Source of the DNA: Eledone cirrhosa
Lineage: Eukaryota
Assembly: GCA_964016885.1 (NCBI GenBank)
Contig: OZ024743.1
Location: 13,020,001-13,084,000, forward strand
Reading direction: 5' to 3'
Length of the DNA stretch: 64,000 bases
Below, one piece after another: positions 7,461 to 47,490 of the stretch. The notes beneath the pieces are model-generated. The model did no database searches. It was not told where the DNA came from and saw only the letters and a program-made list of their open reading frames with translations. A program made the translations under genes and the position numbers. Every line of letters begins with the position of its first letter. The stretch's first letter is position 1.

Positions 7461-8267
7461 AACACATACATATACATATATATGTATACACACACACACA
7501 CACAGACACATACATACATATATATATTTATAACATACATATATATATTTATAACAGCAACTGCTTGTATACCTTTTACTAACCACCTGACCTAGTTTCA
7601 CCCCTAAAATAAGCTTCAATTACTACTATTTTACCATTTGGCCAATTATTAACTTTCTATTGGTTAATTCTAAACCTCTTACCAAACAGACAGAATATAT
7701 TAGATCTTTGTTGGTTTTATTCAATGAACAAATAAAATTATTTCTGAGGTCAACATAAGACCTATTTCTTCCCTAAAATAATCCTTCATTCATAATATTC
7801 TTTTCCATCCAAAACTGAAATCTACCTTCCTCTACCCATAATTTAAGGTTCTTCTACTACTATATTACTATCCTGACCCTCACTATCTCTCTATTGGTCA
7901 ATTCAAAACCTGTTCCCAAACAGACCTATTGTATTGAATCTTTGTTTTTTTCAATAAACAAATATCATTATTTCTGAAGACAGCATATATATGTGTAGGT
8001 ATGTATATTCCCTTTGATAGTTTGTATAAATATTGTACATTGATCTATAGAGTATGCATACCAACTCTAACACATATATATCCTAGAAACGATCGTATAA
8101 TGATGAATCTTTTTAATATAAGGAACTGTTTCTTTGTTTATTCATTATTTTATTAATTTATATATATGTATATATATAGTAAAAAATTGAACGGGAACAA
8201 AACAGAGAGGCAGTACGAACAAAGGTTTATTAGTTTCACGCTCTTGAGAGTGGGGTGGTGGTGGGGA

Positions 8268-8299
8268 ACGACGTTTCTGGCATAAGCCCTTCTTCAGGT
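8268..8299 (-). ncRNA. Minimal type I hammerhead motif of the Penelope-like element
   Basis: The minus strand reads AC-CTGAAGA-A-GGGC-TTAT-GCCA-GAAAC-GTC^GT. Helix III is palindromic ACGT, helix I is only 2 bp, and helix II has one mismatch. Confidence 0.65.
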
Positions 8300-8579
8300 G
8301 AAAAGTGTGTGGGAAGAGAGTTCCAAGGGTGTGTAGGGGAGTGGTGGAGAGACATATAGAAAAAAGGGGGTGAGAGGAAACGGTACAAATGAAATTAAAT
8401 ATAAAAGCATAATAAAAATAAAAATAAACATGAAGTAAAACAGGTGGTGGAAGGGTGTGGGGCGTGTAGGGGTGGTGGAAGGGTGTGGGGCGTGTAGGGG
8501 TGGTGGCGGGTGGAGTGGGGAGAGGGAGGCGGGGTGTCCGAGCAGGGAGGGCTGAAGGTGGTGTGTGTGTGTGTAGGTG

Positions 8580-8623
<44 letters not shown>

Positions 8624-9855
8624 AAAGTAAGAGTTGGGGGAAGAAAGGGGTTGCATGTTCAGGAAGAGGTGTGTGTGGGGTGGGGTGTAGGTCGGTGTGA
8701 ATGTGCGTGTGTGGATGCGGAGGGGTCAGAGGGGTGGGGGGAGAGGATTGCGGAGGCTGAGTGTGTAAATATGTGGTGGTACGCACGTGTGTGGTGTTTA
8801 TGCGTGTTATGGATGTAGGTGGCGTGTGGGAAAACATATTTTTTTAGTGTATGTCAGTGGGTGAGTCCTTAAGGTAGTTCCGTAGAGGATGTGGTGGAAT
8901 GCTGGGTAATATCCTTGGGATGTGGTGGATTCTAGGGATCGATGTTCAATATGTGTAATCCGTGGTTGGTCAGAAGAGGGGAGATGTGGGGTGCGCGCGC
9001 AACAGGAAGTGGTCAGAGGGTCAAGGCAGGACAAGGGTTGTGTGTCTGTGTGTGCGGGGAGGTGGTCAGAGATAAGGGCATAGCAGCAGTCGGGTAGAAT
9101 GGTAAGTGAAGAAAGTCGGTGTGTCAGTGTGTGCGGAGGTGAGGTGGACAGGGGAGAGGATGGGTAGGTGGGAAAGTTGGAGTGAGGAGGGGGTGTGTGT
9201 GTATTAGTAGAGGTATTAGTGGGATGTGTGTGTGTGTGTGAGAAAGGGTGTGGGTGGAGCGGGAAGAGAAGGGTGTGGGGGCCGGTGGAGGGAGTGTAGT
9301 GTACTGGTGTGTGTGTGTGCTTGTTTGGATGAGTGTATGTGTGGTGAAAGGGGTGTTAGTGGGTGGTAGTATACTGGAGGTGGGGAAAGGGTTGAATGCG
9401 GGTGTGCGTGGGGGTCAGTGGTGGTAGGGTGTGTAGAGTGGGTGGTGTAAGTGGGTGTATGTGTTCGTGTGCGTAGGGTTGGGGGGTGTTAGTGATGTTA
9501 GTTGCGTGTAGAGTGGGTGGTGTAAGTGGGTGTGTGTGTTCGTGTGCGTGGGGTCGGGGGGTGTTAGTGATGTTAGTTGCGGGGTGGTTGGGTGGATGTG
9601 TGGGGGTGAGGGTTAGTGGTGGTAGTAGGGTGTGTGTTTAGTGTGAGCGCGTGTATATATGTACCGGTAGGTGTGTGCGTGTGATAAGGGGAGGGGGGAG
9701 AAGAAGGGAGGGATGTTAGTATGTTAGTTGGGGAAGGGTGGTCGCGTGTGGGGTAGAGGTGTTAGTATTGTTAGTTGTGGGGTGGGCGGTGAAAAGGAGG
9801 GCTGTGTTGGTGGTGTTAGTGGGGGATACGTGTGGGGGAGGGAGGCGGTCGAAGG

Positions 9856-10250
9856 CTAAAGGAATAAGGGTGGTGAGTTCAGGCCGGGGGGAGTGTGGGT
9901 CTGTAGGGTGAAGATGGTTCGTTGTTCGACCCTGAGGAGAGTGGCGGGTGTTCCGTGGCATTGGAGTAGGCCACAGACTGTGAGGTGGTGTGAGGAATGT
10001 CCAGGGGCACCAAAGTGGCGGGCGATGGAGGAACTACCACCGAGACGAATATCTCGGAGGTGTTCGGTAAACCGGTCCGCCAGGCGACGTCCAGTCTGTC
10101 CGACGTAGGTTGCGCTGCACCCCGTGCAGCGAAGTCCGTAGACTAGGTTGGAGGAGGTGCAGCGGAAAGCATGCCGGACAGAGAGAGAGAGTGGCCGTTG
10201 GAACCCTGGAAGGTGGTTGTGTTGGTGATGTGGGGACAGGTGTTGCAGCA
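9856..10250 (-). pseudogene. GIY-YIG endonuclease domain fragment (Penelope-like retroelement)
   Basis: VYG..YVG motif pair with intervening CxxC, conserved R..EH and terminal GLN. The RT domain is absent. Confidence 0.85.
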
Positions 10251-10378
10251 TATTTATATATACAATGTCAATTAGATCTCTTGGGAAGTTGAAAACATGT
10301 TATGTGTACATATAAATCTATACATACATATTTACATGAACACACTCCCATATATATAGTGAGTGTGAAAGACCAAAG

Positions 10379-24199: not shown

Positions 24200-25050
24200 T
24201 AACTAAGCAGGATCTTCGCGAATTGGCTGGCTTTTCTCTAATTGTAACTCTTGCATAAATTCGAGCACTGAGAAGGATTGCTGATGAGATCAGAAAATTA
24301 AATAGAGAAATGGCTTTCATTTTTATCGATTTAAAAAAGGCTTTTGACAGCATAAACAGAGATATTTTCTTTCAAATTATTCCACTTTATGACAAACTAC
24401 CAGGATTATGGAAATGAACAAGGTTCTTTATGAGAACACTATTGTAACTATTATCACACATGACAGCCCATTCGACTTGTTTGAAATCTTTTCAGGTGTG
24501 TTGCAATGTGACACACTTGCCACATTCCTATTTGGTATTGCCTTAGACTACGCCCTAGGACACAATCAATGATAAAGGCATTACCATCAAACCACGAAGG
24601 AGGTCCAGGCTCTCCTCACATATCTCGATTTTCCTGATGATATTTCTCTTCTAGCAGACTGTATGGAGAATACCCAACATTTCCTTATTTCACTCCATGA
24701 AGCAGCTACTCTCATCGGCCCTCACTTTAATGAAGGCAAGCAGGAATACATCTCTAACTCTTCATCTGAATTCATCCTCAAAGTTCAAGATGGCAGTACT
24801 CTCAAAAAAGGTCGAAAACTTAAAGTACCTCGGGTTCTGGATCATAGATTCTGGGAAGGTCTTTACCACCAGAAAAGCCCAAACATGGTAAGCTTTCAGC
24901 AAGTAGATTGTATTTGGAGCTCCAGTCTTCTTAACTCCTCCAAAGTAAAGCTTTTCCAAGCCACAATCCAGCCAATACTATTCGATGGTAGTGAGATTTG
25001 GATACTCTCAGCCAAATAACACATACGTCTTGACGGAGCCTATACATCCC
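24200..25050 (+). mobile_element. Degenerate RTE-like LINE reverse-transcriptase fragment
   Basis: Broken frames give FIDLKKAFDSI, GVLQCDTLATFLF, DFPDDISLL, VENLKYLG and KLFQATIQPILFDGSEIW. Confidence 0.75.
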
Positions 25051-32993: not shown

Positions 32994-33206
32994 GACGAAA
33001 GTGGATGTACGTTTTTTGAAGCTCCGTGAGTAAGCAATTTTTGAGGATTAATTGTAGAGAATTGTTTATTTTTTGTACCGCTGAAGCATTATAAGACATT
33101 AATTTGTATCCTGTGAAGGAATAACTCATAATATTTGGGCCTTTTGGCCCAAATATTTGAACTTTATTTTGAAAAAAAAAAATAATAATTTTTTTCTCAA
33201 AAAAAC

Positions 33207-35117
33207 ATGGCGGAGCCACGCCCCCTAGAGGCGGGTCTGCTGTCGTGCAACGGCGACTTGAGCGTTGAGAGGAGAGGTGAGGCGAGGAGCGCCACCAGCA
33301 CGAATGTGAGCAGCGACAGTGCCAGCACCAACGGGCCGAGCGGCGCGGAAGGTGGTAACAGCGACAACACCAACACCAACAAGCCGAACAGCGCAGAAGG
33401 TGGTAATAACGAGAGCACCAACAAAACGAACAGCACAGAGAGTAATAGTAGCGACAGCAGCAGCACCAACAAGGCCAACAGCACAGAAGGTAACCACGAC
33501 ACAGGGGAGAACAACAACAGCAATAGCAGCAGCAACACCAACAAGAACAACAACAGTGACAACACCAACAAGAACACTTTCGCTGCTGTGGCAGCGGCTA
33601 AAAGGAGACCATGCTACAGCATCGACTTAACCAACAGAGAGGAAAAGTTGGCCCAGGCCTGGAAAATCATAAATCAAGAGCAGACCTGGGCAAACTTAAC
33701 TGTCCCGGCAGAAGCCATTGAGGCAGTGGAAAAAAGAACGGTGCATTTCAGATGCATCTCAGTAGAGACAAAGAGGGCAGCGATAATCGCCCAAGCTGAC
33801 ATAGAAGCCGCACTGAAATACATCAGAGAGGACACAGACTTCATAGAGAGGGGCAGGCAATACGGCACCGTTTCGGTGCTGTTCAAGTCTGAAGCCCTCG
33901 CTGTGAAGCATTCAATGACCCCTTGCAAAACCAGCAAGGTCATAATGTACCCCTCCCACATGGGAAAACGAATAGCACGTGTGCGCATTCCCAGGATTCC
34001 ACCAGGACTTGATATGTGGTGGCTCCTGGGTTGCGTAATCGTGGAAGGAACGGATACAGTCCCGGTAGAGGCAACGAGAACTGCCAGGGACGACTGGTCC
34101 GGGGTTGATCTGGAGATACTGCTCCAAATCAGACCCGAAAACGTAAAAACAATCCCGGACCACATCCGCCTCCAAAACGGGAGGGTGTTGCATATAATGA
34201 CTGAGGGCAAAAGGCCGCATTGTTTCCTTTGTGGGGAAACGACACACTTGCGAGCCTTCTGCCCTCAACTGCCGAAAAGCGCAAGGGGTCGAAAGATTCC
34301 ACTGCTGGCGACGCCGGGACAAGGACCACCAGCAACACCGTCAACAATGGAACCACCAAAATTGCACACCCAGGGGGGAAACGAGGAAAGCTCTCCCATT
34401 CCCCCTCCCCTCAAAAATACACACACGAACAAGAACATAAACACTCACTCAGACACAAACACGCTCACAGCCACAGACCCCTCATCCTCCAGCAGTGAAG
34501 ATGAGGGAAAACCAAAGTCCCCCAAAATACAAAAAACAAAACACAAAAAAAAAAGAAATCCACAAAGCACAAACACCCCCACAAAAAAAAATACACACAC
34601 CACCCACACAAACATTTTCCCCACAGCATCACCAACACAACCACCAAAATCCCCCAAACGCAAACAAGCTAAACAGACACAAGAACAAATAGACACACAA
34701 ACATCAGAAACTACAGACACCCCACCCACAACAAACGCAGACACAATAGAAACAACACTAACAAAGCTATCACCACCACAATCACACGAACAAATAAAAC
34801 CCGAGCAACAAAACATTAAAAACTTCGTGCTTGCCAGAAGGGCCAACAAGGAATTGATGGCCCATGTAGCACGAAGCACAAACATCGAAAAAGACGGGGA
34901 AACATTTGAAGCGAGCACATTTCGCGTACCAGATAATTTGCTTCTGATGCGAATGTCGCTCGCTTCATACAAAGAAATTCGAAAGAGCTTTCCTCGGGAT
35001 GTGGGAACCCCGAACGTAAAACCCACGTCAAGACTATTAAAGGGGTTCCCAAAAGAAACCCCACAAACCATGGAGGTCGAACCACCCGACCTTCACAAGA
35101 CCCCGGAAGGTAAGTAA
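33207..35117 (+). CDS. LINE ORF1 (gag-like nucleic-acid-binding protein), 636 aa
   Basis: Single zinc knuckle CFLCGETTHLRAFC (CX2CX4HX4C), Asn/Ser-rich N-terminus and Thr/Lys/Pro-rich region after the knuckle. It lies immediately upstream of ORF2. Confidence 0.88.
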   Translation: MAEPRPLEAGLLSCNGDLSVERRGEARSATSTNVSSDSASTNGPSGAEGGNSDNTNTNKPNSAEGGNNESTNKTNSTESNSSDSSSTNKANSTEGNHDTGENNNSNSSSNTNKNNNSDNTNKNTFAAVAAAKRRPCYSIDLTNREEKLAQAWKIINQEQTWANLTVPAEAIEAVEKRTVHFRCISVETKRAAIIAQADIEAALKYIREDTDFIERGRQYGTVSVLFKSEALAVKHSMTPCKTSKVIMYPSHMGKRIARVRIPRIPPGLDMWWLLGCVIVEGTDTVPVEATRTARDDWSGVDLEILLQIRPENVKTIPDHIRLQNGRVLHIMTEGKRPHCFLCGETTHLRAFCPQLPKSARGRKIPLLATPGQGPPATPSTMEPPKLHTQGGNEESSPIPPPLKNTHTNKNINTHSDTNTLTATDPSSSSSEDEGKPKSPKIQKTKHKKKRNPQSTNTPTKKNTHTTHTNIFPTASPTQPPKSPKRKQAKQTQEQIDTQTSETTDTPPTTNADTIETTLTKLSPPQSHEQIKPEQQNIKNFVLARRANKELMAHVARSTNIEKDGETFEASTFRVPDNLLLMRMSLASYKEIRKSFPRDVGTPNVKPTSRLLKGFPKETPQTMEVEPPDLHKTPEGK

Positions 35118-35146
35118 ACCTTTCCTCTCCCATTCATCCTGCCAGC

Positions 35147-38100
35147 ATGGCCATAAGAGTAGGAAGTTTAAATGTTCGTGGCCTGGGGTCGCCCTGGAAG
35201 CAAGGTCACTTGCTCAACGACCTCAGGTCACTAGGAATAGATGTAATTGCCATCAGCGAGACCAGAATTTCCGACACACGCGCACTGGCGCCGATTTTCG
35301 ACGATTATCAGATCTTTGCATCTGTTAGTCGGCCGGGAATGGGAGGTGGAGTGGCTGTGCTGTTTAGGAAATGTCTGGATCTCGAGGTAAGGTCAATCTT
35401 CCGGGATCCTGACGGAAAGTTGGTGGTCCTGGACGTGAGCAATAGCGAAGGTGGTGCCTTTAGACTGGTGGCCGTCTACGCCCCTACTGGGGCCGGTCGG
35501 CCGGACTTCTTTAGGCGCCTGGAAAACTTTCTGCTTACGTCTCGCCCTTTACTGTTAATAGGGGATTGGAATGGCATCTTAGAAGCACGCTGGGATTGTG
35601 TGGGAGTATCTGATAGGAGCGGGGGGTGCAAAAGCCTCAAGTACCTGATCAGCCAGTTTCAACTGTCTGACAGGTACCGACTAGATTTCCCTAATGCGCC
35701 AGTATGGACCTGGACCAATCGCATAGGGTCATCTAGATCGTACATAGATAGGATTTTCATTAGGAAAAGAGATAGAAATAGTGTAGGATGTCCACATTTT
35801 AAAACGGTTGCCTATTCAGATCACAAGCTTGTGATCTGTATGGTCGACCTAGATAAGACACGTAGGTTAGGACCTAGCTACTGGAAGCTAAACATGTCGT
35901 TTCCGGCACGTAAAGCTTACAGGGACCGGGTCAACAACTTAGTTAAGCAAAAGTTGACAGGGGGGGTTGTCAACAACAGGTGGTGGGGGGCACTCAAAAG
36001 AGAGATTAGAGCAACCTCGATAGGATTTAGCAAAGAAGTAGCAATAGAGAAAAATAGAAAAGAGGAGGGGCTGATAGCTAAGTTAGACGAGGCTATTTGT
36101 AGTGGCATTGCAACAGACGTGCTAGCGGCGAGAATGGCACTAGACCATTTCTTCAATGCGAAACACGAAGGTTGCATTGTCAGAGCTAAGGCGCGTGCTC
36201 TGAGGAACGAGGGAACCAAAGCTGCCCGATGGGCTCGCTTTGCAGAGACGCAGCGTGGAAATAAAACCACAATTCGGTCTTTGACGGATCGAGATGGACA
36301 CGAACTGAGCGATTCCAAGCAGATGTGTGAGGCCTTTCGCCAGCACTTTGCTCGATTGTTCGGGAGGATGGGTGAGTCGGAGATGGCGGCGGACTTCAGT
36401 CCCTACCTCGACGGCTTGCCACGCCTCTCGACGGCCGACGCTGAGCGCTGCGAAGAGCCGATAACATCAGCCGAAATTCAGGACGCCCTTGTCGGCTGCT
36501 CGAGTCGCAAGTCACCCGGTTTGGATGGTCTGCCCTACGAGCTTTACGTAAATATGCCAGACTTGTTCTCCGATCTCCTCGAAGCGCTCTACTGCAACTG
36601 GCAGCAGAACGGGAGCATTCCCAGTTCTGTGAGCCGTGGCGTAGTGACGCTGATAAGGAAAGACGAGAACAAGAGGGACACACTAGATAATTTCAGGCCC
36701 ATAACCCTGCTCAACACAGAGTTTAAGATTTTGGCCAAGGTGTTAGCGAAAAGGTTGGCGCTTGTCGTCAAAGATTTGGTTGGGGAGGCGCAAACTTGCG
36801 CAATCCCGACCAGGTCCATACACGACAACCTCCACCTCATGCGATACATCATAGAGAGGGTTGGGTGCAAACCTGGCTTCGGTGGGGCTCTGATCAATTT
36901 AGATCAATCGAAAGCATTCGATAGGGTCGACCATCGGTACTTGGAGGCTGTCCTCGAGGCGGCTGGCTTCGGCCCCGTCTTCAGAAGCTGGATCGCTGCA
37001 ATGTACAGCGGCATCCGCTCGGTGGTCAAAGTTAATGGCCACCTCTCGGAACCGTTTCAGATCTCTCGATCGGTCCGTCAAGGGTGCCCTCTCTCCTCAC
37101 TTCTGTACGTATTGACTCTTGAGCCTCTACTGCGGAAGCTGGAGTTGTTGCAGGGCATCCCGCTCGAACCGGGACGTAGAAAGGCTGCGTCCGCTTATGC
37201 GGACGACATCACCGTGATGGTGTCGGACACCTCGGAAATCGAGGTGATCCGCACCCATTTGGAGGAATATGAAAGGTTGACGGGAGCAAAACTTAACCCG
37301 GAAAAGTCGGTGGGCTTGCAGCTCGGCACCTGGAGAGGCAAGTCCATGCCGTCCAACAGCGTCGTTGGGCGCTGGACAGACGGACCGGTAAAGTTGCTCG
37401 GGGTTTGGTTCGGACCAGACCTCCAGGTGGATAAGAATTGGGACGAGGTGACGAGCAGGATAGCCAACCTCACCCAGAAATGGGCTGAGAGAAAGCTATC
37501 ACTGAAAGGGCGGGCGGAGGTGGCGAACGCGTACATCGCGTCCGTCATCTACTACCGCCTGACCGTCGTGCCTTGCCCCCGTCCACGCCTCGCCAATTTG
37601 GAACGGCTCCTTTTCAAATTTTTGTGGAGGGGACGGGTCCCGTTGGTGAGGCGGTCCATCTGCTGCCAGCACCCTCTTCGTGGAGGGCTGGGCATGCCGT
37701 GGCTAATGATGCGCAGACATGCGCTGAGGCTGCGACATCTCCAGATATTTTGCCTAAACGGTGAACAGGTGTGGTCGCCGTTTGTTAGACGGGCCTTTCC
37801 GCAGCTCATCTCTTTGACTGAGCTGCAGTCCTGGGTCAAGAAGAGACCGAGACTGGGCGACTGGCATCTGGAATGTTGCCAGGCGCTCACTGCACTCTGC
37901 AAGGTGGGCAATGCGGTCAGTGGAACTTCCACTCAAGATTTCTATAGAGGATTAGTGGAGGGCAAGTGCGATGACGTACTAGGAGAGGCTCTGGGCGTCA
38001 ACGAAGTAGAACTGACCAGTATGTTCCGGAGGACTTTCGAGCCGGGGACGATGGATAACTTCCAGAAATCCCTCGCTTGGCAGTGCTACCGGGGGGCGCT

Positions 38101-38566
38101 GCCGGTTCGGGATAAACTCTACAGGCACGGAAGTGCTGTCAGACGAACCTGCCCGAGATGCGCGCAGAGCGACGAAACCGTTCTGCACGCACTCGTCCAG
38201 TGTCCGTGCATTGCTGACTTGTGGGGTTATGTCGAACAGCTATTGTCGCGTGTAGAACGGATCCGGCTATCGTCCGAGTCCATAGTGAAGATTGACCCGC
38301 CGCCTTCTTTTGGTCAGGAAGGGCAGGCAATTTTCCTCTGCCTGGTGGCAGTAGCGAAAGAGGTTGCATGGTGGACCAGGTTGAAAGGACTGAAGACAGA
38401 CACTTTTCTCTTCGGCCAATCCCTCATCAACTTCTTCAAGTTTCACTTGGAAAGGAAGGTGAGGGTGGAGAGAGAAGTGCTGCCCCCCAGTACATTTACT
38501 GAAAGGTGGGTGAATGTGGCGAGAATGGCCCGCGTGAGTGGGCCTACTCTGATCATGCGCCTGTAG
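35147..38566 (+). CDS. LINE ORF2: APE endonuclease + reverse transcriptase + C-terminal Zn-finger, 1139 aa
   Basis: EN motifs SLNVRG, ISET, VYAP, GDWN, IDRIF and SDH. RT motifs KSPGLDG, FRPITLLN, LDQSKAFDRV, VRQGCPLS and YADD. Zn-finger CPRC..HALVQC. No stops or frameshifts. Confidence 0.96.
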   Translation: MAIRVGSLNVRGLGSPWKQGHLLNDLRSLGIDVIAISETRISDTRALAPIFDDYQIFASVSRPGMGGGVAVLFRKCLDLEVRSIFRDPDGKLVVLDVSNSEGGAFRLVAVYAPTGAGRPDFFRRLENFLLTSRPLLLIGDWNGILEARWDCVGVSDRSGGCKSLKYLISQFQLSDRYRLDFPNAPVWTWTNRIGSSRSYIDRIFIRKRDRNSVGCPHFKTVAYSDHKLVICMVDLDKTRRLGPSYWKLNMSFPARKAYRDRVNNLVKQKLTGGVVNNRWWGALKREIRATSIGFSKEVAIEKNRKEEGLIAKLDEAICSGIATDVLAARMALDHFFNAKHEGCIVRAKARALRNEGTKAARWARFAETQRGNKTTIRSLTDRDGHELSDSKQMCEAFRQHFARLFGRMGESEMAADFSPYLDGLPRLSTADAERCEEPITSAEIQDALVGCSSRKSPGLDGLPYELYVNMPDLFSDLLEALYCNWQQNGSIPSSVSRGVVTLIRKDENKRDTLDNFRPITLLNTEFKILAKVLAKRLALVVKDLVGEAQTCAIPTRSIHDNLHLMRYIIERVGCKPGFGGALINLDQSKAFDRVDHRYLEAVLEAAGFGPVFRSWIAAMYSGIRSVVKVNGHLSEPFQISRSVRQGCPLSSLLYVLTLEPLLRKLELLQGIPLEPGRRKAASAYADDITVMVSDTSEIEVIRTHLEEYERLTGAKLNPEKSVGLQLGTWRGKSMPSNSVVGRWTDGPVKLLGVWFGPDLQVDKNWDEVTSRIANLTQKWAERKLSLKGRAEVANAYIASVIYYRLTVVPCPRPRLANLERLLFKFLWRGRVPLVRRSICCQHPLRGGLGMPWLMMRRHALRLRHLQIFCLNGEQVWSPFVRRAFPQLISLTELQSWVKKRPRLGDWHLECCQALTALCKVGNAVSGTSTQDFYRGLVEGKCDDVLGEALGVNEVELTSMFRRTFEPGTMDNFQKSLAWQCYRGALPVRDKLYRHGSAVRRTCPRCAQSDETVLHALVQCPCIADLWGYVEQLLSRVERIRLSSESIVKIDPPPSFGQEGQAIFLCLVAVAKEVAWWTRLKGLKTDTFLFGQSLINFFKFHLERKVRVEREVLPPSTFTERWVNVARMARVSGPTLIMRL

Positions 38567-43293: not shown

Positions 43294-43984
43294 TATACAA
43301 AAATATATTCAGTGGATGGAAGAGAGCAAGCGGGGACTAAATTCCAGGACACTGAAAAAATCACTGCCTTCTTGTTCGGTGGCAAATTCAAAAGAATCAA
43401 TCACGTGACATCGAGGTTAATCAGTGAGGAGTGGAGTGTTAAAAAGACAGTAGCGAAGCTGTTACTATGAACTATAGTAGTAATTTTGGCAAATTTTTGC
43501 TCAACAAAATAATTTGGAGATAATTATAAAGAATTAGTATATCTAACAACATATATATACAGATGTATACCTATGCAAGCAAATATATAGGTTTTGTCTT
43601 AGTAACTTTGTGGTTCAATGCAAGGGGATGCAGAAAAATTATACGAAAAACGTAAAATAAGAAAATTATAGTAATTAGCTTACTTACTTAAATTTCAGTC
43701 CAACTAATTAGTTTCTGAAAGGGAATATACATGGAGAACATGGAGAAACCTTTTCAGTGTCCTGGAATTTAGTCCCCGCTTGATCTCTTCCATCCACTTA
43801 ATATATTTTTGTATAGGTTCCCTCTGTCCACGCATCGCCAGGTATCTTAGCTGAGAATTGACTCCCTGATGACGAAAAGGTTTCTCCATGTTCTCCATGT
43901 ATACTCCCTTTCAGAAACTAATTAGTTGGAGTGAAATTTAAGTAAGTAAGCTAATTACTATAATTTTCTTATTTTACGTTTTTC
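43294..43984. repeat. Two interlocked inverted repeats
   Basis: 43294-43358 vs 43751-43815 (65 bp) and 43645-43755 vs 43874-43984 (111 bp). The structure ends at a (TA)n tract. Confidence 0.85.
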
Positions 43985-43986
43985 AA

Positions 43987-44322: not shown

Positions 44323-44358
<36 letters not shown>

Positions 44359-44518
44359 TAGAATTGGAGCTCTGAAATAGCAATATATATATGGATGTAT
44401 ATATAATGTATTTTGCAATACACTTTATGCTTAATTAAAAGCATTTTGAAGACCGTAAGCTATTGTTTTAAAGTAGTGACAAATTCACTCACTTTGATCT
44501 CAGCAAACAGGGGAGATA

Positions 44519-44562
44519 ATCCGACAAGTCTTGTTTCGCTTTGGTTGAAGCTTATCAAGGCC
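44519..44562 (-). ncRNA. Type I hammerhead, U3-A8 variant (copy 1)
   Basis: The minus strand reads GGCC-TTGATAA-GCTT-CAACCA-AAGC-GAAAC-AAG-A-CTT-GTC^GGAT. Confidence 0.72.
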
Positions 44563-44836
44563 AACTACCCCACCTGTTTACTGAGATCATTGATGTTATA
44601 TTCTTATAGAAATCTAGTAAATAATCAGGAGCTGATTATGCAGAGCGGTTGTTGGTCAGGCAGAAATTAAAAATTAGAATTGGAGCTCTGAAATAGTAAT
44701 ATATATATATGGATGTATATATAATGTATTTTGCAATACACTTTATGCTTAATTAAAAGCATTTTGAAGACCGTAAGCTATTGTTTTAAAGTAGTGACAA
44801 ATTCACTCACTTTGATCTCAGCAAACAGGGGAGATA

Positions 44837-44880
44837 ATCCGACAAGTCTTGTTTCGCTTTGGTTGAAGCTTATCAAGGCC
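44837..44880 (-). ncRNA. Type I hammerhead, U3-A8 variant (copy 2)
   Basis: Identical motif 318 nt from copy 1. Confidence 0.72.
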
Positions 44881-45760
44881 AACTACCCCACCTGTTTACT
44901 GAGATCATTGATGTTATATTCTTATAGAAATCTAATAAATAATTAAGAGCTGATTATGCAGAGCGGTTGTTGGTCAGGCAGAAATTAAAAATTAGGGCTT
45001 ATCTCCCCTGTTTGCTGAGATCAAAGTGAGTGAATTTGTCACTACTTTAAAACAATAGCTTACGGTCTTCAAAATGCTTTTAATTATATGCTTTTAATAT
45101 ATGTGTGTGTGTATATATATATATATGTATATATATATGTATATATATGTATATATATGTATATGTATATATATATGTATATATATGTATATATATGTAT
45201 ATGTATATGTGTATATATATATAGACCTGTGCGAAATTCCTTCCTTGCTCACATTTCAACCAGGTTTGATGGTCTTTATTCTCTCTCGTTCACGATTTCA
45301 CCGAATTTAAATTCATAGAAATTTGGGACTTGACTCCTTCTTCCTCATTTTTCGTTGCTTCACCATTTAGGTTTGTTTACACTCGTATCCCGTTTATTTA
45401 CGTGTCCCAACGACTTTTTTTTAGCCGTTGCTCGCACCAGCCGGAGGTATATGGTCTTTAAAGCGATGAAATACCAATGATAGTTGGAAGATCACTGATG
45501 AAGGACTAACTTTATTCATATGTACCCATTAGCAACCCGCAGCACGTTTATTCTCATATTTACACATATTTTTCCCCCTGCTGTTACCCGTCTATTTCGT
45601 TCTTACTGCTTCCTCTTTCTCTGTATCTTTACCCTCTCTAGCAGTCACTCTCTCTGTTAGCCTCTTCCTCACCCTTCACTCACTCATTCTCGGCTGAGCC
45701 GTTAATTTTCATAAGGAAAGTATATACTTTCGAACGTTCAACTATCTGGCAGAAGGGTAT

Positions 45761-45803
45761 ACGGTGCTGATGATAGCTAACAAGCTTGAAACTAGTATAT
45801 CGT
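45761..45803 (+). ncRNA. Minimal type I hammerhead (copy 1)
   Basis: ACGGTG-CTGATGA-T-AGCT-AACA-AGCT-T-GAAAC-TA-GTA^TATCGT. Helix I is 6 bp and helix III is palindromic ACTAGT. Confidence 0.78.
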
Positions 45804-45962
45804 TCCTGTGTCAGTGTTGAACAAAAAGGTGACGTGGTTGCCTTAACACCGTACGGCATAAAATTCAGGCTGTTCAGTTTGTTTACAAACGAATAAAGCG
45901 GCGTTATAATAAGCATCTGCTAAACTGATACGTGCATATATGTATGTGTACCTGTATGTATA

Positions 45963-46032
<70 letters not shown>

Positions 46033-46270
46033 CATGCTACTGTACGTCTGTATACATATATGTATGTACGTATAGACACATACTTACATTTAAGTAAGTG
46101 CCGTACTAAGAGTGAGAAATGAAATTTCGTTTTCATTTTATTTCAACTTATCGTTTTCGGTATGCCTGACCGAATTAACTCACTCGATATGCAAATTAGG
46201 CTGCTCAGCCGTTAATTTTCATAAGGAAAGTATATAATTTCGAACGTTCAACTATCTGGCAGAAGGGTAT

Positions 46271-46313
46271 ACGGTGCTGATGATAGCTAACAAGCTTGAA
46301 ACTAGTACATCGT
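46271..46313 (+). ncRNA. Minimal type I hammerhead (copy 2)
   Basis: Same motif with helix I ACGGTG/CATCGT. The single difference in the motif (G-U vs G-C) preserves pairing. Confidence 0.8.
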
Positions 46314-46607
46314 TCCTGTGTCAGTGTTGAACAAAAAGGTGACGTGGTTGCCTTAACACCGTACGGCATAAAATTCAGGCTGTTCAGTTTGTTTACAAAC
46401 GAACAAAGTGGCGTTATAATAAGCGTCCGCTAAACTGATACGTGCATATATGTATGTGTACCTGTATGTATATATATGTATATATATATATATATATATG
46501 TGCATGCTACTGTACGTCTGTATACATATATGTATGTACGTATACACACATACTTACATATATATATATATATTTTACATATACATATATACATATATAT
46601 ACACACG

Positions 46608-46675
<68 letters not shown>

Positions 46676-46762
46676 CATATATATATATATAAATACATAT
46701 ACATATATATATAAATACATATATATATATATATAAATACATATACATATATATATATATAT

Positions 46763-47490
46763 AATAAAAAATTGAACAGGGACAGAACAGAGAGGCAGTA
46801 CGACAAATGTTTATTAGATTCACGCTCAGGAGAGTGGGGGGTAGGTGGAGGACGACGTTTCGGGCATAAGCCCTTCTTCAGGTAAGAGTTCAAAAGGTGT
46901 GTAGGGGAGTGGTGGAGAGACATATAGCGAAAGGAAACGGTGCGAATGAAAAATTAACAAATAAAGACAAAAATATAATAAATAATAAATAAAAATAAAG
47001 CATGATCAAAATACAAGGAATGAGAACATTTAAAAATAAAGGCATGATCAAAATAAACTGAAATTAAAAGGTGGGGTAAACAGGTGGTGGAAGGGTGTGG
47101 GGTGAGTAGAGGTGGAGGCGGGTGGAGTGGGGAGAGGGAGACGGGGTGTCCGAGCGAGGAGGGCTGAAGGTGGTGTGTGTGGTTAGGTGTGCGTGTGTGT
47201 GTGTGTATGTGAAAGTGAGGGTTGGGGGAAGAACGGGGTTGCATGTTCAGGAAGGTGTGTGTGGGGGGTGTTTTTGTGTGTCAGAGGGTCTGTGCGTGTG
47301 TGGATAGGGGGTGGGGGGAGAGGAATCAGGGGGCTGAGGGTGTAAATATGTGGTGGGAAGCACGTGTGTGTGGTTTAAGCGTGTTGTGGGTGTGGGTGGC
47401 GTGTGGATAAAACAATTTGTTTTGGGATGTGTGTGTGGGTGAGTTATATAGGTGATGGTGTTAGAGGATGGTTGAAAAGTGGTAAGTTAC
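46763..47490 (-). mobile_element. Second, shorter copy of the Penelope-like 3' region
   Basis: Collinear with about 8178-8900 and bounded by (TA)n on both sides. Confidence 0.85.
46852..46883 (-). ncRNA. Minimal type I hammerhead motif
   Basis: AC-CTGAAGA-A-GGGC-TTAT-GCCC-GAAAC-GTC^GT. Helix II is perfect and helix I is weak. Confidence 0.7.

Follow-up and report, generated by a model that had tools for sequence, protein, structure and literature searches.

The window analysed here, a stretch of 64,000 nucleotides from Eledone cirrhosa, carries two hammerhead ribozyme motifs in close tandem at 45697–46559, which raises the question of what kind of element left them there and which machinery copied it. 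The locus is 1.8 head-to-tail units of a young non-LTR retrozyme, not a pair of LTRs flanking a spacer. Regarding its mobility, we consider it probable (roughly 0.8) that this protein-free retrozyme is copied into (TA)n by the reverse transcriptase (RT) and endonuclease of a Penelope-like element (PLE).

Structure of the insertion

The features of the insertion and its immediate surroundings are as follows.

45108–45223, no strand: left (TA)n tract, likely target
45224–45691, + strand: piece of another tandem family (unit about 630 nt), joined to the array on its 5' side
45684–45705, no strand: 5' junction, containing an 8-nt fold-back of the unit's own sequence
45697–46206, + strand: retrozyme unit 1, 510 nt, with head, hammerhead, internal (TA)n, both 3'-end sites and the 'spacer'
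45761–45803, + strand: core 1 (type I hammerhead), cleavage predicted after A45797, helix II base U-U
45947–46030, + strand: (TA)n tract inside unit 1, 84 nt against a family median of 54
46081–46092, + strand: short (S) 3'-end site, at which unit 1 does not stop
46093–46151, + strand: tail of about 59 nt, ending at the long (L) 3'-end site, 46151
46189–46196, + strand: ATGCAAAT motif, located 88 nt upstream of the core and retained in sister families
46207–46559, + strand: retrozyme unit 2, which stops at the short (S) 3' site and runs into the (TA)n target
46246–46332, + strand: predicted extended helix I around core 2, about 23 bp with three bulges
46271–46313, + strand: core 2 (type I hammerhead), cleavage predicted after A46307
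46457–46500, + strand: (TA)n tract inside unit 2, 44 nt
46560–46763, no strand: right (TA)n tract, likely target

The direct repeats noted in the preliminary description were recovered at 45697–46089 (393 nt) and 46207–46559 (353 nt) with a gap of 117 nt, and they differ by seven substitutions and a 40-nt change in the length of (TA)n. Thirteen ATG-initiated frames of at least 30 aa occur in the span, all of them short and mostly of low complexity. The two units differ at four shared-variant sites, and the junction between the array and the fragment of the 630-nt family occurs once genome-wide. Since the units represent different circulating variants and the 5' end is fused to another family, template switches are likely for this copy; the 5' fusion itself is likely due to template switching, with a later rearrangement as a possible alternative. 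The motif ATGCAAAT, which we take to be an octamer, is missing in front of unit 1, is exact in 271 of the 285 copies that cover the region 88 nt before the core (overlapping loci being counted twice), and is possibly a promoter element.

The 630-nt family represented at 45224–45691 (and at loci L062–L080) is non-coding, tandem or inverted, and has 4,676 candidates in the genome; its two 3' ends lie about 45 nt from each other, and of a hammerhead core it contains just the first half. Farther upstream lies a 318-nt tandem family with an inverted arm (44357–45100). The retrozyme is indeed unrelated to the latter, as had been stated before, similarity being limited to TA-like bits. A descriptor search, which may be too strict, found no complete hammerhead in either the 630-nt or the 318-nt family. 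At 43590–43985 lies a palindromic insertion whose arms are unequal in length and whose centre resembles a degenerate hammerhead; it is likely another PLE-end insertion.

The hammerhead motif

Two type I hammerhead motifs are present at the positions first reported, with cut sites at 45797 and 46307 (H17), 510 nt apart. Both repeats contain the same parts, namely ACGGUG, CUGAUGA, AGCU-AACA-AGCU, GAAA, CUAG and UA, and in core 1 the first pair of helix I is G-U. The motifs had been described as minimal hammerheads, a label that does not hold: a 6-bp helix I, a 4-bp helix II and a short palindromic helix III are the features of the canonical animal type I hammerhead as described in PMC4209133, while the minimal hammerhead of PLEs is characterized there by the lack of helix III, a long helix II and a short helix I. 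According to the same source, the canonical type acts as a dimer within tandem repeats, and the short palindromic helix III found here would suit dimeric cleavage. Folding predicts a longer, bulged helix I of about 23 bp (z = -3.6 relative to 300 shuffles).

The preliminary description did not mention a U-U mismatch at the base of helix II, which occurs in 100 of the 100 matches listed for a pattern leaving those positions free. The mismatch, together with a helix III of 1 bp, predicts a weak ribozyme. The Rfam match is weak (Hammerhead_HH9, 17.6 bits, E 0.11, gathering score 52), and across the whole window none of the 150 matches listed out of 306 reaches the gathering score, these being mainly microsatellite-driven miRNA matches. 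Eight of nine predicted Xenopus retrozyme dimers were reported not to cleave in vitro (bioRxiv 2026.07.22.740005); an axolotl hammerhead with the same U-U base was reported to cleave to 22% as a monomer and better as a dimer, and to give circles in vivo (PMC7229834).

A young and dispersed retrozyme family

A search of the 3.0-Gb genome recovered 10,718 exact copies of the 31-nt ribozyme core and none of its reversed control, so the motif is not a chance occurrence; with neutral positions freed to include sister subfamilies, the count rises to 25,528 cores. The copies are dispersed on many contigs as head-to-tail arrays and diverging mirror-image arrays, and the best-scoring ones (best 40 of 2,364 candidates) are 98–100% identical. 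These numbers exclude a one-off local duplication and support the earlier proposal of an independent, dispersed retrozyme or Penelope-related family. The length of 510 nt is specific to this locus, since the unit consists of 426 nt plus a variable TA block with a median of 54 nt, giving a typical total of about 480 nt; the earlier view of 510 nt as the size of the family is thereby replaced. It had also been proposed to look for the repeat next to RT/GIY-YIG ORFs, and no such ORF belongs to the unit.

The family has the features of a non-LTR retrozyme, that is, one type I hammerhead per tandem unit, short dispersed head-to-tail units and no encoded protein. Viewed within the window alone, two repeats and a gap could pass for an LTR-type element with two terminal repeats around a 117-bp internal region, as in the 'LTR-like' interpretation given at first, or for a local satellite duplication. 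Both are extremely improbable, because the gap sequence is part of every full unit, the arrays comprise from 1 to at least 7 units and are dispersed with fixed ends, and the type I hammerhead found here contrasts with the type III of LTR retrozymes (bioRxiv 2026.07.22.740005).

The median number of substitutions is 1 between units of the same array and 8 between units of different arrays. Among 88 adjacent unit pairs, 57 share every informative allele and 9 mix variants, the pair in this window included. A second subfamily is 82% identical, with G-U swapped for U-G in helix I. In addition, a third related retrozyme-like family (L232–L251) has a unit of about 433 nt and is 63–69% similar over about 120 nt; its helices I–III differ in sequence and mostly still pair, A-A replaces U-U in 21 of 21 motifs, the short-end motif is the same, the internal TA is absent, and a ATGCAAAT-type motif is repeated three to four times before the hammerhead. 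Helix changes keep pairing across the subfamilies and the third family, and within the family covariation is thin, with one pair changed on both sides in 6 sequences. As the loci were picked by similarity or by exact core match, conservation of the core cannot be demonstrated from them free of bias. Among the papers found in searches on retrozymes, hammerheads, cephalopods and Penelope-like elements, none describes this family, which may already be catalogued in Repbase, Dfam or supplementary data.

Fixed 3' ends and mirror-image insertions

Array ends were surveyed in 100 overlapping loci (L001–L060 and L081–L120) after de-duplication, and 109 of 224 anchors terminate. The ends fall at two sites about 60 nt apart, 270–330 nt past the cut site: 53 lie at or before the short site (seven of these calls being alignment breaks just upstream of it) while the other 56 reach the long site, some 59 nt downstream, with (TA)n adjoining 103 of the 109. 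All 35 diverging insertions scored combine one short and one long end (34 of 34 if one doubtful end is removed), for which the probability would be about 3e-11 if the ends were independent. The same combination was found in 8 of 10 diverging insertions of the 82%-identical subfamily, the other two having an unclassifiable end, and in 5 of 5 insertions of an ORF-bearing PLE of the same genome. One short and one long end per inversion is the 'tail' signature of Penelope elements, and an inverted 5'-truncated arm with a tail on one end, as in autonomous PLEs, is found in this family as well. None of the papers found in searches on retrozymes and Penelope-like elements describes such an end-pairing rule for a retrozyme.

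The mapped 5' ends are spread all along the unit, and 1 of 63 lies within 5 nt of the cut site, where 1.7 would be expected. Since they do not gather there, the template likely spans the cut site, and a linear cut-to-cut monomer is disfavoured as the main template. At inversion junctions the arms overlap by 1–7 nt in 17 of 26 cases. Opposite arms are at most 1 substitution apart in 33 of 54 pairs, compared with 591 of 12,543 between arrays, which indicates that both arms usually derive from one variant. Arms of two different families are joined in the mirror-image insertions L053, L099, L119 and L082; of four readable mixed-family insertions, three combine a short with a long end and one combines two long ends.

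TA repeats as cargo and probable target

TA repeats are the probable target of the family, and each unit carries such a repeat itself. The suggestion that it spreads TA microsatellites is correct for the internal tract, which is multiplied with each unit, and probably does not extend to the flanking tracts, which are likely pre-existing targets, given that the family without an internal tract and the ORF-bearing elements also end in TA. As for target-site duplications, array ends lie within (TA)n; the non-inverted 5' flanks are TA in only 10 of 21 cases. The array ends are not set by TA homology, because 198 of 204 units read through their own internal TA tract, and priming by pairing with the internal (UA)n is disfavoured by the same count. 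Construction of the tandems by insertion into the unit's own TA tract was rejected, as full units join tail to head. Other mobile elements are inserted in the unit's internal (TA)n at L031, L101, L108 and L118.

Candidate helper and other elements

The unit was compared with three ORF-bearing PLE families, namely the GC-rich family of this window (30 loci), one AT-rich Hydra-like family (45 loci) and a young Hydra-like family (30 loci), and in each comparison no common sequence was found beyond TA-like bits or neighbouring retrozyme copies. As no ORF-bearing PLE in these three families resembles the unit, homology does not identify the helper. One chimeric insertion, L082, has TA on both sides and joins the short end of the retrozyme to an open-frame PLE fragment and the long-end arm of that PLE. 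This PLE family (L082/L253) shows 98–99% identity among 2,590 candidates, terminates in TA and includes, in L253, an open frame of 793 aa; its resemblance to the description in PMC8557442 would place it in the Hydra clade. On the strength of this single chimera, the young Hydra-like family is a candidate helper, and the chimera could also be obtained by insertion followed by deletion.

Several coding elements were observed besides. The segments 46764–47480 and 8145–10299, both on the - strand, are 3' ends of the GC-rich RT and GIY-YIG PLE family, which has a minimal hammerhead, ends in TA and yields 27,295 first-look candidates, with 626 aa as the longest open frame seen. AT-rich Hydra-like families with long open frames are represented by L187 (2911–5160, - strand, 750 aa) and L253 (793 aa); a Pfam search with the 750-aa protein of L187 gave no match. 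An apparently intact two-ORF LINE occupies 33189–38566 on the + strand, with a first frame of 642 aa and a 1150-aa frame containing endonuclease, RT and zinc-binding domains.

Proposed mechanism and alternative explanations

In the favoured reading, a protein-free retrozyme moved by PLE proteins, the arrays would be transcribed, paired hammerheads would cut out monomers and a host ligase would circularise them. A dimer of the PLE protein would nick each strand of (TA)n, and cDNA would start at two internal sites, one per strand. Both cDNAs would extend past the cut site, the template being either circular or an uncut multimer, and the two would then be joined by short microhomology. A more detailed version is tentative and falls somewhat short of even odds: a ribozyme-made circle would be copied by both active sites of one Penelope dimer, starting at the two fixed points about 60 nt apart, one for each nicked strand of the TA repeat, and rolling into mirror-image arrays, the dimer would sometimes take two RNAs, the young Hydra-like family would act as helper, and each unit would deliver a fresh target microsatellite. 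A single circle does not explain the adjacent pairs that mix variants (9/88), and hammerhead cleavage was reported to be dispensable for PLE insertion in vitro (PMC11167929). It is possible, although rather unlikely, that the same element and PLE machinery operate with a weak or idle hammerhead, so that the template is an uncut read-through multimer and not a circle. The weak hammerhead architecture would agree with this, as would the in vitro results in PMC11167929, where unprocessed RNA was the dominant PLE substrate; the lack of 5' ends at the cut site fits equally well, and mixed-variant arrays could stem from mixed donors. However, the three families change only neutral core positions and swap the sequence of helices I–III while mostly still pairing, the axolotl hammerhead with a U-U base (PMC7229834) cleaves and gives circles in vivo, and most adjacent pairs (57/88) share every informative allele.

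Fold-back copying of the first cDNA, in place of a second priming event, is unlikely as the source of the mirror-image arm: self-priming has been proposed for PLE inversions (PMC3846280), palindromic overlaps of 12–29 nt occur at 3 of 26 junctions, and 18 of 23 insertions (25 rows minus 2 artefact rows) have one arm lying wholly within the sequence of the other, but in the remaining 5 neither arm is contained in the other, the longer arm is not always of the same end class (12 against 6), and some insertions join arms of two different families. Less probable again is an origin from an unsampled autonomous PLE, of which the copies would be ordinary 5'-truncated ends consisting of pseudo-LTR and tail. 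A tail and inverted arms are standard PLE traits (PMC3846280, PMC8557442), and a rare autonomous parent is possible since the best 40–150 candidates were scored per search; yet no ORF separates the tail of one full unit from the head of the next, the mapped 5' ends are scattered over the whole unit, the PLE ORF matches near arrays belong to families with unrelated terminal repeats, and the hammerhead is of the canonical type.

Comparison with known systems

The retrozyme class is already known, as is the one-end tail of PLEs. Which enzyme moves animal retrozymes, and whether the template is circular, has so far been argued from co-occurrence and terminal-repeat similarity (PMC7229834; bioRxiv 2026.07.22.740005), and the latter calls the mechanism of retrozyme mobility unresolved. 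The footprint of the Eledone family can be counted: there are two fixed ends, and each of the 35 mirror-image insertions scored combines one of each. This matches the two internal start sites, bounding the tail, at which purified PLE protein begins cDNA in vitro (PMC11167929). The end-pairing rule is useful evidence on how retrozyme-type elements move, and thousands of near-identical copies together with a same-age candidate helper carrying a 793-aa frame make the question of the mover directly testable. At 25,000 cores of about 480 nt, the family would amount to an estimated 12 Mb or so, 0.4% of the genome.

Like the non-LTR retrozymes of coral, mussel and axolotl described in PMC7229834 and bioRxiv 10.64898/2026.07.22.740005, the Eledone family consists of non-coding head-to-tail units, each with one canonical type I hammerhead, in thousands of dispersed copies. 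Two axolotl motifs in PMC7229834 share its peculiarities, HHR_Amex2 having a U-U helix II base and HHR_Amex1 a 1-bp helix III with a palindromic loop. The Eledone unit is longer than the expressed retrozyme circles of 170–400 nt and falls within the 51–972 bp range of the preprint. Unlike the animal non-LTR retrozymes in these two sources, it holds a variable (TA)n; moreover, the passages considered contain no description of paired 3' ends at fixed sites, of inversions or of TA targeting.

The Eledone family also resembles endonuclease-positive PLEs, especially the Hydra clade, for which PMC8557442, PMC3846280 and PMC11167929 report tandem and inverted insertions, a one-end tail, internal start sites and (TA)n targets. 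The Eledone unit differs from them in the lack of an RT or GIY-YIG ORF, in its canonical instead of minimal hammerhead, and in a tail of about 59 nt compared with 30–40. Chlamys elements such as MRC1 (PMC8557442) are also non-coding, multicopy head-to-tail elements moved by PLEs with a microsatellite bias, but, as described there, they are without canonical hammerheads and their 3' end resembles that of autonomous partners. Newt satellite 2 is a hammerhead satellite with an snRNA-type promoter (cited in PMC2220036), and the conserved ATGCAAAT upstream of the Eledone core may hint at a similar internal promoter.
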